Shown: positions 7,486 to 11,571, numbered from the stretch's first letter. The stretch is DNA of 41,011 nucleotides from a virus (IMGVR_UViG_2563366930_000002:1-41011); one strand, 5' to 3'. Notes: generated by a model from the sequence alone, not told the origin. Translations and numbers: made by a program.

Positions 7486-8190
7486 CTATAACCGATTGTA
7501 TTTTATTGACTCATGAATCAACGCCTTGCCCATTACATAAAGCTGATCCTGCGATTTTTCATCGATGTACCATTTCTCATAGGCAGGGTTATCCGAAAGA
7601 ACGGCTAGCTTGTCACCTTGCATTTGAAGACGTTTAACATGAAAAGTCTTACCGTAAACGAAAGAGTAAATTCCATCAGTCTGGAAGTGACGAACAGAAA
7701 TGTCGACAAACAGTCGATCTCCGGAAACGAGAGTAGGGGACATACTATCGCCATTTACAGTCATAACCTTAATATCATCCTGAGAACGGTTACCGAAAAG
7801 AGAACGGGCATGTTCTGTTGTGAACTCAATGGCGTAGAGCACATCAACATAGTCTGAAAGCATATAGGTTCCAGGTCCTGCGCTAACGCTAAGATCTAAA
7901 ACTTCTATCCTGTATACGTCGGGTTTTGTTGGATTGGGGATGCTTGCCATTTCCTTACATCCTTCTCTCTCGCCAACACCATATTCTAAATATGAAGCCG
8001 ATACCCCCAGAGCCAACGCAAGTTTATTCATGACAGAGGCACGAGGCTTCGCTGCGCCGATTGTGTATCGCCGCGCCATTTCATATGTAACGCCAACAAG
8101 ACTTTTGAGTTGGGTGACAGAAATTCCCTTGTTTGTCATTAACTCGTTTAGTCTCTTGGCGAAATCTGGATACTTCTGTTCTTCTACCAT
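7486..8190 (-). CDS. cI-like prophage repressor (XRE helix-turn-helix plus S24 LexA-like peptidase domain)
   Basis: N-terminal helix-turn-helix (KRLNELMTNKGISVTQLKSL); C-terminal S24 signature (VNGDSMSPTL with Ser, later Lys in HVKRL); longest ORF runs to 8247 but overlaps the operator, so start set at MVEEQKY (8226 also possible). Confidence 0.85.
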   Translation of the reverse strand: MVEEQKYPDFAKRLNELMTNKGISVTQLKSLVGVTYEMARRYTIGAAKPRASVMNKLALALGVSASYLEYGVGEREGCKEMASIPNPTKPDVYRIEVLDLSVSAGPGTYMLSDYVDVLYAIEFTTEHARSLFGNRSQDDIKVMTVNGDSMSPTLVSGDRLFVDISVRHFQTDGIYSFVYGKTFHVKRLQMQGDKLAVLSDNPAYEKWYIDEKSQDQLYVMGKALIHESIKYNRL

Positions 8191-8230
8191 AGGTAGAAGA
8201 TTACTCACATCACATACGCTCGTCATTTCT

Positions 8231-8265
8231 ATTTTAAGTAGTTGCAATTCGCTACTTTAAGTAGC
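8231..8265. promoter_or_regulatory. OR-like operator region between divergent repressor and cro
   Basis: Repeated and palindromic TTTAAGTAG / CTACTTTAAGTAG motifs in the intergenic region. Confidence 0.55.
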
Positions 8266-8297
8266 ATTATCCCCTCTGGATTTCAGAGGAGAAAGAT

Positions 8298-8561
8298 ATG
8301 TCATCTCAAAACTACACCGAGAAAGCAGTAAAGGCTGCGGGAAAGTCTTTATCTGAAGTAGCTCGTCGCTTTGGTTTTAAATCTACTCAATCTGTCGCTA
8401 ATTGGGTAATTAACAATCAAGTCCCGTCGGAACGAGTTTTACAACTTTGTGAGCTGGGGAACTGGTCCGTAACCCCCCATGAGCTGCGTCCTGATATTTA
8501 TCCAAATCCAAATGATGGATTACCAGAGTGCTATTCAAAAGTTAGCGGTTCAGTTGCGTAA
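8298..8561 (+). CDS. Cro-like helix-turn-helix regulator (YdaS-like)
   Basis: Divergent from repressor; GAGGAGAAAG Shine-Dalgarno; helix-turn-helix segment KSLSEVARRFGFKSTQSVANWV. Confidence 0.7.
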   Translation: MSSQNYTEKAVKAAGKSLSEVARRFGFKSTQSVANWVINNQVPSERVLQLCELGNWSVTPHELRPDIYPNPNDGLPECYSKVSGSVA

Positions 8562-8589
8562 ACGTAACCACAGAAACGAGGAGTTAACC

Positions 8590-9141
8590 GTGGGTAAGCA
8601 TCACTGGAAAGTAGAAAAACAGCCTGAGTGGTACGTGAAAGCTGTCAGAAAAACTATCGCGGCGTTGCCGGGTGGTTACGCTGAAGCTGCTGACTGGCTG
8701 GATGTAACAGAGAACGCATTATTTAACCGCCTTCGTGCCGATGGCGATCAGATTTTCCCGCTGGGATGGGCAATGGTTTTACAGCGCGCAGCTGGCACTC
8801 ACTACATTGCGGATGCTGTCGCACAGTCTGCTGGTGGGGTGTTCGTATCGCTTCCTGAAATTGAGGAAGTAGAGAACGCCGATATAAACCAGCGCCTGCT
8901 GGAAGTCATCGAACAGATCGGGAGTTACTCAAAGCAGATTCGTTCGGCAATCGAAGATGGGGTAGTGGAGCCACACGAGCAGACAGCAATTAATGATGAG
9001 TTGTATCTGTCAATTTCGAAGCTCCAGGAGCATGCAGCACTGGTCTACAAAATCTTTTGCGCTCCAGAAAAGAGTGACGCCCGCGAGTGTGCAGCTCCGG
9101 GCGTCGTGGCGTTTTGTGTCTGTGGAGAAACTAACGCATGA
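8590..9141 (+). CDS. CII/YdaT-like early regulatory protein, GTG start
   Basis: GAGGAG then 6 nt then GTG at 8590; follows cro as in lambdoid immunity regions; family assignment tentative. Confidence 0.55.
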
Positions 9142-9476
9142 ACAGTTTAACAACACACTACCGTCGCTCGCAACTGATTGCGCTTCCTGTACCGGGTGGA
9201 AAAGCGAAGGTGGAGTATTGCTATGCAGTAAATGTACCAGGTGACAGGGTAATTGTAACCCACAGCTTTGCAGAGTGGGCTGTGGGTGATTTCAACCGGC
9301 AAAAGGAGACAGTCCTTTGCGACAAGTTAACCGCTGGTTCAAAGATCACTACGGAGTACCCGTCAGAGTCATTCGTTGGGAGCCGGAAACACAACGGGTT
9401 ATCTACCTCCGCGAAGGCTATGAGCATGAATGCTTCAGTCCGCTCGAACAGTTTCGTCGTAAATTCAGGGAAATAG
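9138..9476 (+). CDS. Hypothetical protein, 112 aa; C-terminal half may be a frame artefact
   Basis: ATGA overlap with upstream gene; N-terminal 50 aa look protein-like, but from about 9290 another frame looks better. Confidence 0.4.
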
Positions 9477-9496
9477 AGGTCGGTCATGAGCACTAA
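9317..9496 (+). CDS. Small basic protein, 59 aa, TTG start (not in ORF track); alternatively the frameshifted C-terminus of the upstream gene
   Basis: AGGAGA 7 nt upstream of TTG at 9317; translation [59 protein letters not shown]; stop overlaps the next gene's start. Confidence 0.35.
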
Positions 9497-10427
9497 ATTA
9501 ACCGGCTATGTATGGGATGGTTGCGCAGCGTCAGGCATGAAATTATCCAGCGTGGCAATTATGGCCCGCCTGGCTGATTTCAGTAATGACGAAGGTGTGT
9601 GCTGGCCATCAATTGAAACCATTGCCCGCCAGATTGGCGCGGGGATGAGTACCGTCAGAACGGCTATCGCACGGCTGGAAGCAGAAGGCTGGTTAACGCG
9701 TAAGGCGCGTCGCCAGGGTAACCGCAATGCGTCGAATGTTTATCAGCTTAACGTTGCGAAGCTTCAGGCAGCGGCATTTTCTCAACTGTCAGATTCTGAC
9801 CCGTCAAAATCTGACGCATCAAAATCTGACCCGTCAAAATTTGATGCGTCGAAATCTGGCAAAAAAGCGGGTTTTCACCCGTCAGAATCTGGCGGGGATC
9901 CGTCAGTAAAATCAAAACATGATCCGTCAGATAAAAAACCTTCTCGTCCGGACGCTTCGCAACCGGACACGCAGACGGCTGAACAGGATTTTTTAACTCG
10001 CCATCCTGATGCGGTTGTATTCAGCCCTAAAAAGCGCCAGTGGGGAACGCAGGATGATTTGACCTGCGCACAGTGGCTCTGGAAAAAAATCATCGCCCTG
10101 TACGAGCAGGCCGCCGAATGTGACGGCGAGGTGGTTCGTCCCAAAGAACCGAACTGGACAGCCTGGGCAAACGAAATTCGCCTGATGTGTGTGCAGGATG
10201 GTCGTACTCACAAACAAATCTGCGAGATGTACAGCCGCGTCAGCCGCGATCCGTTCTGGTGCCGTAACGTGCTCAGCCCGTCGAAGCTGCGGGAAAAATG
10301 GGATGAGCTTTCCCTGCGCTTATCGCCGTCCGTCAGCACGTACACCGAAAAACGCGAAGACCCGTACTTCAAAGCCAGTTACGACAATGTGGACTACAGC
10401 CAGATCCCGGCAGGATTCAGGGGGTGA
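9486..10427 (+). CDS. Replication initiator (lambda O-like replisome organiser) with N-terminal winged helix-turn-helix
   Basis: N-terminal helix-turn-helix (MSTVRTAIARLEAEGWL); internal low-complexity SKSD repeat encoded by iterons; position after cro/cII. Confidence 0.8.
   Translation: MSTKLTGYVWDGCAASGMKLSSVAIMARLADFSNDEGVCWPSIETIARQIGAGMSTVRTAIARLEAEGWLTRKARRQGNRNASNVYQLNVAKLQAAAFSQLSDSDPSKSDASKSDPSKFDASKSGKKAGFHPSESGGDPSVKSKHDPSDKKPSRPDASQPDTQTAEQDFLTRHPDAVVFSPKKRQWGTQDDLTCAQWLWKKIIALYEQAAECDGEVVRPKEPNWTAWANEIRLMCVQDGRTHKQICEMYSRVSRDPFWCRNVLSPSKLREKWDELSLRLSPSVSTYTEKREDPYFKASYDNVDYSQIPAGFRG
9788..9936. repeat. Iteron array inside the replication gene; candidate phage origin
   Basis: At least five copies of CCGTCA(A/G)AATCTGAC-like units followed by an A-rich tract (ATAAAAAACC). 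Confidence 0.6.
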
Positions 10428-10918
10428 TCATGAGTCTTTTGAATGAAGTTCAGAAATTCATTGAAGCCCATCCGGGGTGTACTTCCGGAGACATTGCGGA
10501 TGCTTTTGCTGGTTACTCACGGCAGCGCGTTCTGCAGTCAGCAAGCAAGTTACGTCAGAGTGGGCGTGTGGCTCACCGTTGTGAAGGAGATACACGCAGA
10601 CATTTCCCGCGCCTGACTGAGAGAGCGCAGGATCCGGAACCACAACCAGTTCGTGAAACCAGACCTGTGCGCAATTTCTATGTCGGCACTAACGACCCGC
10701 GGGTGATTTTGTGCCTGACCCGCCAGGCGGAAGAACTGGAGTCCAGGGGCTTATACCGTCGTGCTGCAACGGTGTGGATGGCGGCATTCCGTGAAAGCCA
10801 CTCCCAGCCAGAACGAAACAATTTTCTGGCGCGTCGTGAACGGTGTTTACGGAAAAGCAGTAAGCGGGCTGCATCAGGTGAAGAGTGGTATCTCTCAGGG
10901 AATTACGTGGGGGCTTAA
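10424..10918 (+). CDS. Hypothetical regulator with PerC-like C-terminal region
   Basis: C-terminal LESRGLYRRAATVWMAAF resembles the PerC/Pch family from memory; ATGA overlap with upstream gene. Confidence 0.5.
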   Translation: MIMSLLNEVQKFIEAHPGCTSGDIADAFAGYSRQRVLQSASKLRQSGRVAHRCEGDTRRHFPRLTERAQDPEPQPVRETRPVRNFYVGTNDPRVILCLTRQAEELESRGLYRRAATVWMAAFRESHSQPERNNFLARRERCLRKSSKRAASGEEWYLSGNYVGA

Positions 10919-11571
10919 TGAGTAATAAATATTGCCAGGCGCTGGTGGAACTGCGGAACAAACCAGCCCATGAACTGAAGGAAGTGGGCGATCAGTGGCG
11001 CACGCCGGACAACATTTTCTGGGGAATTAACACCCTGTTTGGCCCGTTTGTTCTGGATCTGTTCACTGACGGTGATAACGCCAAATGTGCTGCGTATTAC
11101 ACGGCGGAAGACAACGCGCTGGCGCATGACTGGTCAGAACGCCTTGCGGAGCTTAAAGGTGCTGCCTTTGGTAATCCCCCATACAGCCGCGCCAGTCAGC
11201 ATGAGGGGCAATACATCACCGGCATGCGTTACATCATGAAGCATGCCAGTGCCATGCGTGATAAAGGCGGGCGCTATGTTTTCCTGATCAAAGCTGCCAC
11301 CAGCGAAGTGTGGTGGCCGGAAGATGCAGATCATATTGCTTTTATTCGCGGGCGTATTGGTTTTGAACTGCCTGCCTGGTTTATCCCGAAGGATGAGAAG
11401 CAGGTGCCGACAGGCGCTTTCTTCGCTGGTGCTATTGCTGTTTTCGACAAGACCTGGAAGGGACCGGCAATCAGCTACATCGGGCGCGATGAACTTGAGG
11501 CGTGTGGTGAGGCCTTTCTGGCGCAGGTTCGCCAGCAGGCAGAAAAACTGGTCAGGGAGATGGCGGCATGA
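10918..11571 (+). CDS. Phage DNA N6-adenine methyltransferase (Dam family)
   Basis: FGNPPYSR catalytic motif; start at MSNKYCQ overlaps the upstream stop (TAATG). Confidence 0.9.
   Translation: MSNKYCQALVELRNKPAHELKEVGDQWRTPDNIFWGINTLFGPFVLDLFTDGDNAKCAAYYTAEDNALAHDWSERLAELKGAAFGNPPYSRASQHEGQYITGMRYIMKHASAMRDKGGRYVFLIKAATSEVWWPEDADHIAFIRGRIGFELPAWFIPKDEKQVPTGAFFAGAIAVFDKTWKGPAISYIGRDELEACGEAFLAQVRQQAEKLVREMAA

Follow-up and report, generated by a model that had tools for sequence, protein, structure and literature searches.

Overprinted gene pairs, in which two genes are read out of frame with each other from the same DNA, are known from lambda (Rz/Rz1) and from phiX174, and translational coupling in phage operons is known to operate through overlapping or adjacent stop and start codons, as at ATGA-type junctions. 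The locus analyzed here can be compared with both. It occupies positions 9138 to 9496 of a 41,011-nucleotide stretch of viral DNA (IMGVR_UViG_2563366930_000002:1-41011, referred to here as the window), where it is surrounded by the early-right operon of a lambdoid prophage, and it is part of an e14-like (e14/SfIV-like) E. coli prophage. As with Rz/Rz1 and the phiX174 pairs, one stretch of DNA would yield two proteins in different frames, and the likeness extends to a younger frame that is compositionally biased and disordered, with the older frame carrying the constraint. Unlike in those pairs, the second frame here lacks residue-level conservation, with only its openness, composition, and stop being kept, and the N-terminal module that precedes its tail is exchangeable, with at least four types.

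The described locus with which the window can be compared directly is that of the e14 prophage of E. coli K-12, which has the same gene in the same order, ymfM lying between ymfL and a replication gene. The two differ downstream, where e14 has a chimeric ymfN and the window prophage, an intact e14-like element, has a full initiator gene. The K-12 MG1655 record lists ymfM (b1148) as "cell division inhibitor YmfM" and lists no DUF4222 gene. When the K-12 ymfM ORF was cloned in pBAD24 by Ansari et al., cells filamented and Z rings were lost, which is the SfiC phenotype, and this filamentation was independent of SulA, SlmA, and MinC (bioRxiv 10.1101/2020.11.19.390815). Earlier library clones had spanned the 3' end of ymfL, ymfM, and the 5' end of ymfN (PMC3614548; PMC6206680). 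The reports of filamentation and Z-ring inhibition concern the K-12 allele only. We found no mention of a DUF4222 gene inside ymfM in the K-12 annotation or the ymfM papers, no publication on the ymfM/DUF4222 overlap, and no published work on the function of DUF4222, a family without assigned function.

An initial annotation of the window, made from its sequence, had drawn attention to a frame conflict upstream of the replication gene and had offered two explanations, either a TTG-initiated small gene overlapping a mis-extended ORF or a gene carrying a frameshift, to be decided by alignment to related prophages and by an HMM search of the small peptide. The small gene has stood up, and neither mis-extension nor frameshift has. 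We consider it probable, on comparative grounds, that 9138-9496 is instead a conserved dual-coding module, from which YmfM and a DUF4222 protein would be independently initiated and in which the overprinted YmfM tail is only kept open.

Gene order and the two reading frames

Upstream of the locus lie an S24-type repressor gene (7486-8247, minus strand), a cro-like gene (8298-8561), and ymfL (8590-9141, plus strand), whose product is a CII/CP76-like regulator recognized by Pfam Phage_CP76 and by the NCBIfam YmfL equivalog (169 bits). The ymfL start is the GTG at 8590, preceded by GAGGAG, with bounds that match those of RefSeq homologs, and its TGA stop overlaps the ATG of the following gene in an ATGA at 9138-9141. 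The ORF that begins at this ATG (frame 0, plus strand, 9138-9476, 112 aa) is a homolog of K-12 e14 ymfM. Its product matches phrog_1170 (E = 1.5e-68) and is identical to K-12 e14 YmfM at 108 of 112 residues; over 359 nt, the window and K-12 differ at 7 positions (352 identical), which give 4 substitutions in YmfM and 0 in the DUF4222 protein.

YmfM itself had no match among Pfam, NCBIfam, or PDB sequences. Its AF2 model has a pLDDT of 54, too low for a fold search, with a weakly confident N-terminal strand/helix domain and values below 50 for residues 68-112. The tail of about 52 residues is hydrophilic and Ser/Thr-rich and, as judged from the model, probably disordered. Across loci, the N-terminal part comes in divergent, exchangeable types, all of which begin MNSL... 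and all of which run into the same tail. A fourth N-terminal type is found in the ymfM-like ORFs of SfV (orf37; L124, 1352-2188) and mEp460 (gp41; L123, 1352-2503). In both, the usual stop is missing and the frame crosses a DUF4222 gene that is intact, starts with GTG, and is 63% identical, continuing into an Ash-family domain (residues 117-213), followed in mEp460 also by a Rha domain. These ORFs may encode true fusion proteins, or Ash and Rha may be made from internal starts.

The second frame (frame 2) is open from 9290, after a TGA at 9287-9289, to a TAA at 9494-9496. It contains no ATG or GTG, and its sole canonical start is the TTG at 9317-9319; the Shine-Dalgarno sequence on the same strand can be read as AGGAG (9304-9308), ending 8 nt before the TTG, or as AGGAGA (9304-9309), ending 7 nt before it. 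All that the initial annotation had read directly from the DNA is borne out, namely, the 112-aa ORF, the open frame from 9290 with its single, well-placed TTG, and the overlap of that frame with the initiator start. The gene that begins at this TTG (9317-9496, plus strand) encodes 59 aa. By HMM search, the product matches Pfam DUF4222 (PF13973) with 67.3 bits (E = 8.6e-19), where the gathering score is 27 bits, with residues 2-53 aligned to profile positions 3-52 of 53, and it matches phrog_1343 at E = 2e-34, the match being full length for both models. By these Pfam and phrog matches, the protein-likeness of frame 2 is far beyond chance. RefSeq holds the same sequence with the same bounds in other E. 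coli genomes (WP_001250269.1), and the TTG gene itself is therefore already known from RefSeq annotation.

Comparison with relatives places the start where the initial annotation had put it. The N terminus is common to 139 DUF4222 homologs, and the start falls at one aligned residue across genera, as ATG in most, GTG in some, and TTG in Escherichia/Shigella, with a GGAG-type motif upstream of the aligned start in other genera. Stand-alone DUF4222 genes (60-66 aa) lie just upstream of the replication (rep) gene in Serratia, Yersinia, and two Escherichia phages, and distant members of the Pfam family are likewise stand-alone, with no overlapping ORF, unlike the window member, which is overlapped by ymfM. 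The AlphaFold model is confident (pLDDT 84) and consists of a five-strand barrel with a short helix, so that the protein is predicted to be a small Tudor/SH3-like beta-barrel; UvrD, CarD, and Mfd have RNA polymerase-binding domains with a Tudor-like fold. Judged by its homology, its start, and the purifying selection described below, the DUF4222 frame is a real gene.

Further observations were made around this gene. A 6-bp hairpin at 9302-9319 (AAAGGA/UCCUUU, loop GACAG) would pair the DUF4222 Shine-Dalgarno sequence with bases around the start, the initial TT of the TTG among them, and could tie DUF4222 initiation to the passage of ribosomes that translate ymfM; relative to shuffled sequences, the fold of the 91 nt around it is slightly but not significantly better (z = -1.4). 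Two loci have an internal stop in DUF4222, at Trp7 in L040 (Phytobacter sp. V91) and at a Glu codon in L023 (Kosakonia quasisacchari), and the ymfM frame is open over its full length in both. These may be decaying prophages or assembly errors or, since the ymfM frame remains open, may hint that DUF4222 is dispensable in some prophages. On the minus strand, a GTG-started ORF of 90 aa (9221-9493) shares the codon register of DUF4222. Its frame is free of stops in 31 of 36 loci, a plausible reason being that no DUF4222 codons other than TTA, CTA, and TCA would close it, and it is probably not a gene.

The arrangement of the two frames bears on the proposal of a frameshifted gene, in which a single ancestral gene, comprising the YmfM N terminus and DUF4222, would have been split by a frameshift mutation or a sequencing error or would be expressed by programmed -1 frameshifting. 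A -1 shift would fit the relation between the frames (0 to -1), and a few database proteins (P0030, P0051, P0060, and P0063) do fuse the YmfM N terminus to DUF4222 in one frame. Such fusions are rare, however, with junctions that differ from one another, and no indel interrupts the two-frame layout, which is the same in 40 distinct loci and in 51 distinct E. coli alleles; every one of these alleles keeps both ORFs and the TTG intact. Codon alignment shows only whole-codon length differences, in some genera, on which a frameshift mutation and a sequencing or assembly error were rejected, and a search of the ymfM frame (9138-9476) for a slippery X XXY YYZ heptamer was empty, which, with the inconsistent fusion junctions, led us to reject a programmed -1 shift. 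Moreover, both ORFs have conserved starts, DUF4222 has a Shine-Dalgarno sequence of its own and is found elsewhere as a separate gene, and frameshifting would not need a long open overlap. Given the indel-free loci and alleles, the conserved DUF4222 start, the lack of a heptamer, and the inconsistent fusions, we regard a single shifted gene as highly improbable. Sequence comparison instead shows that no frameshift is involved and that, as described below, both frames are evolutionarily maintained.

Selection and openness in the overlap

The two parts of ymfM are under different constraint, as seen from pooled Nei-Gojobori estimates of dN/dS. In the part that is not overlapped (9138-9316, plus strand, encoding the N-terminal ~59 residues), frame 0 has a ratio of 0.27 over the first ~58 ymfM codons, versus 1.2-1.4 for the other two frames, which indicates purifying selection in frame 0, and among E. 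coli alleles the polymorphic sites number 2, 6, and 14 at ymfM codon positions 1, 2, and 3, respectively. The overlap comprises 160 nt (9317-9476, plus strand), in which DUF4222 codons 1-53 correspond to YmfM residues 61-112, one base out of register. Here, dN/dS is 0.13 in the DUF4222 frame, 1.5-1.65 in the ymfM frame, and 1.7-1.9 in the third, closed frame. As the value for the ymfM frame is indistinguishable from that for the third frame, the peptide sequence of the YmfM tail is not conserved. Consistent with this, 13 of the 14 polymorphic sites in the overlap among the 51 E. coli alleles are third positions of DUF4222 codons, which are second positions of ymfM codons, so that these 13 polymorphisms always alter the YmfM tail. 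On these estimates, amino acid sequence in the overlap is selected in the DUF4222 frame only. The initial annotation had remarked that frame 0 resembles a protein only over its first ~50 codons, which agrees well with the ratios of 0.27 and about 1.5 and with the low pLDDT of residues 68-112. Rather than a frame-0 protein conserved through its full length beside an unconserved alternate frame, it is the alternate frame that proves the better conserved.

From these results, it could be argued that only DUF4222 and a short YmfM N-terminal peptide matter, with the frame-0 extension being a functionless by-product that is open by chance or through common ancestry. A tail dN/dS of about 1.5, as in a noncoding frame, the polymorphisms that alter the tail, its predicted disorder, and the practice of the NCBI pipeline, which omits ymfM in favor of DUF4222, would all be expected under such a view. 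It has to be weighed against the openness of the extension, which was followed in 38 loci from one-genome-per-species contigs (Escherichia, Shigella, Citrobacter, Enterobacter, Kosakonia, Kluyvera, Atlantibacter, Raoultella, Leclercia, Phytobacter, Silvania, Buttiauxella, and others), in 80 E. coli-type viral contigs, and in deeper relatives located via YmfM homologs. An ATG-started ymfM ORF of 108-117 aa is open in each of the 40 distinct loci, which represent about 15 enterobacterial genera, and it always overlaps the first 52-54 codons of DUF4222 one base out of register. The frame is also open in the deeper relatives, in which DUF4222 is visibly far more diverged. Over 156 nt of the overlap, the ymfM (+1) frame contains no stop in any of the 36 distinct loci compared; on average, there are 3.3 stops in the third (+2) frame and 2.5 and 6.4 in two antisense frames.

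An expectation for this openness was obtained by resampling each DUF4222 protein with synonymous codons. Under this null, for which the codon usage is approximate, the ymfM frame was open in 4% of resamples with the codon usage of the window, in 7% with that of the genes flanking the loci, and in 4-9% for the deeper relatives. Synonymous sites are near saturation across the loci (pS 0.53-0.58), and openness is therefore not simply inherited identity. The choice of codons carries the same signal: Val and Leu codons of the GTN and CTN families that precede a codon starting with A end in A or G in 0 of 125 cases, versus 44 of 95 cases where the same families precede C or T, a safe context, although the loci share ancestry and neither these counts nor those from resampling are independent observations. 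Val16, for example, is GTG or GTA solely where the following codon begins with C. A site-wise parsimony count of stop avoidance had too few qualifying columns to add power.

The end of the frame is as regular as its openness. In 39 of 40 distinct loci, the ymfM stop falls at the same DUF4222 codon, where it is formed by a rare ATA, TTA, or CTA codon together with a following A or G; in the window, it is a TAG (9474-9476, plus strand) made of a rare Ile codon, ATA, and the G with which the following codon begins. Controls are provided by DUF4222 genes that have no ymfM-like ORF ahead of them, and these do carry +1-frame stops, at codons 1, 9, 21, and 33 in Serratia phage BZS1 and at codons 1 and 6 in Yersinia phage YeP1, with such stops present also in Escherichia phages SaltyDalty and LMessi. 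Against chance or shared descent, then, stand the openness of every locus and of the deeper relatives at near-saturated synonymous divergence, the context-dependent avoidance of purine-ending Val and Leu codons, the fixed position of a stop built from rare codons, and the stops in the controls, and we consider a functionless extension improbable.

A mis-extended ORF, as suggested in the initial annotation, is thus wrong in the respect that counts, since evolution has maintained the extension; moreover, the 112-aa ORF is the established ymfM of K-12. By these comparisons, the ymfM frame is maintained to its end rather than simply running on, and its openness against an expectation of 4-7%, together with the conserved stop, makes it appear to be translated to that end, though the tail is not conserved. 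The best reading of the overlap may therefore be that the ymfM frame is selected merely for being open, for not being hydrophobic, and for stopping before the initiator ATG. Apparently new here is the finding that selection maintains both frames, for sequence in one case and, in the other, solely for openness, composition, and stop position, and the locus provides a clean natural case of selection that preserves the latter three properties of a frame but not its sequence.

The junction with the replication initiator

The conserved stop acquires additional meaning when it is placed beside the start of the replication initiator. This gene (9486-10427, plus strand) is of the HTH_36 type (Pfam HTH_36/DnaD_N), and in SfIV and other phages such genes carry the annotation "replication protein". 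In the window, the ymfM TAG at 9474-9476 is followed by the spacer AGGTCGGTC and the initiator ATG at 9486, which places the ymfM stop 9 nt upstream of that ATG. The ATG itself lies inside DUF4222 codons His57-Glu58, with the frame-2 ORF overlapping the initiator by 11 nt, and the DUF4222 stop is 8 nt downstream. In all distinct loci, the distance from the ymfM stop to the rep ATG is 6-9 nt and is constant across rep types, and at least five unrelated rep N termini begin at the same ATG within the His-Glu codons of DUF4222 (L004-L041, +169 to +175). In the deeper relatives, the order is reversed, with the DUF4222 TGA overlapping the rep ATG and the ymfM stop coming after it. The rep ATG is also a sharp mosaic junction, and DUF4222 variants of 70 aa occur where the downstream module differs.

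These distances suggest a mechanism in which translation of ymfM would begin at the 9138 ATG, linked by the ATGA overlap to the end of ymfL, and would yield a selected N-terminal domain of ~58 residues followed by a disordered tail of ~52 residues. DUF4222 would initiate at the TTG at 9317 from its own AGGAG, its coding sequence overprinting the YmfM tail. Ribosomes in the ymfM frame would cross DUF4222 to a stop 9 nt short of the initiator ATG, those in the DUF4222 frame would terminate 8 nt past it, and both streams would feed termination-reinitiation at the initiator, giving translational coupling along ymfL, ymfM/DUF4222, and rep. The arrangement resembles that of coupled phage genes both in the ATGA shared by ymfL and ymfM and in the placing of the ymfM and DUF4222 stops within 9 nt of the rep ATG. 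Unlike in usual coupling, two different ORFs here converge on one start. No significant RNA structure masking the initiator ribosome binding site was found (fold versus shuffles, z = +0.9), and a GAGG precedes the initiator as well, so that the plausibility of coupling comes solely from the geometry. That both ORFs deliver ribosomes to the initiator start is accordingly put forward as a tentative proposal, to which we would give somewhat less than an even chance. As ymfM and the initiator are in the same frame in the window, the conserved stop would also prevent a fusion of YmfM to the initiator.

The frame could be kept open for such ribosome delivery, because the phage tolerates or benefits from a hydrophilic, disordered tail, or for both reasons. 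Compared with resamples in which the frame happened to be open, the YmfM tail is less hydrophobic (mean z = -1.8, below 0 in 35 of 35 loci) and richer in Ser and Thr (mean z = +1.6, above 0 in 35 of 35 loci), a shift that arises because C is overrepresented and T underrepresented at the third positions of DUF4222 codons. It is conceivable that the Ser/Thr-rich tail contributes directly to the inhibition of division by YmfM, for instance as an interaction region or a disordered linker, and that ribosome delivery is not what keeps it open. The uniform hydrophilic composition is in line with this, as are the demonstration of filamentation with a full-length ORF construct and the continuation of the SfV and mEp460 frames into Ash or Rha domains, where the tail would be linker-like. 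The tail shows no residue-level conservation, however, and the conserved stop next to the rep ATG would be left unexplained, for which reasons we hold a working tail to be rather unlikely. It is nonetheless compatible with a dual-coding module in which the tail is kept open, differing from it only in the reason for that openness.

Annotation records, the SfiC phenotype, and the wider operon

Each tradition of records lists one of the two ORFs only. K-12/EcoCyc-style records and those of SfIV and mEp390 annotate ymfM alone, and the NCBI pipeline annotates DUF4222 alone; PHROGs holds both families, each without assigned function. The "frame conflict" is therefore a conflict of annotation practices. 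Roughly half of complete E. coli genomes match the locus (2,713 of 5,426), and on the evolutionary evidence both genes, of which each tradition shows one, are maintained in these genomes and across the Enterobacteriaceae.

The consequence for physiology concerns ymfM, which is now credited with the 40-year-old SfiC phenotype. All of the ymfM inserts described above include the Shine-Dalgarno sequence, the TTG, and at least 53 of the 59 codons of DUF4222, that is, the start and most of a second conserved protein. Because the inserts carry both frames, the inhibitor could, on the published experiments, come from either of them, an ambiguity about the SfiC/YmfM effector that likewise appears new. 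Identification of the active product, and hence the search for its target, calls for a frame-specific test. It could be speculated that the ymfM tail is a "translated spacer" of ~52 codons that brings ribosomes to the initiator and that SfiC filamentation is due wholly or partly to the DUF4222 barrel. We consider this combination unlikely; were DUF4222 the effector, the e14 division inhibitor would have been assigned to the wrong reading frame.

A search for Rfam families over 8000-11000 of the window gave no match. Downstream of the initiator, the stop/start overlaps run on along the operon: the GTG start of a PerC-family gene (yfdN-like, 10424-10918) overlaps the initiator stop in a GTGA, and a gene for a phage N6-adenine methyltransferase follows at about 10885-11571. 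Within the initiator gene, five to six direct repeats of 15 nt, of the TCAAAATCTGACSCR type, are found at 9774-9863 (and 9867-9935). They are iteron-like, comparable to the lambda origin inside gene O, and encode a repeated DxSKS motif.
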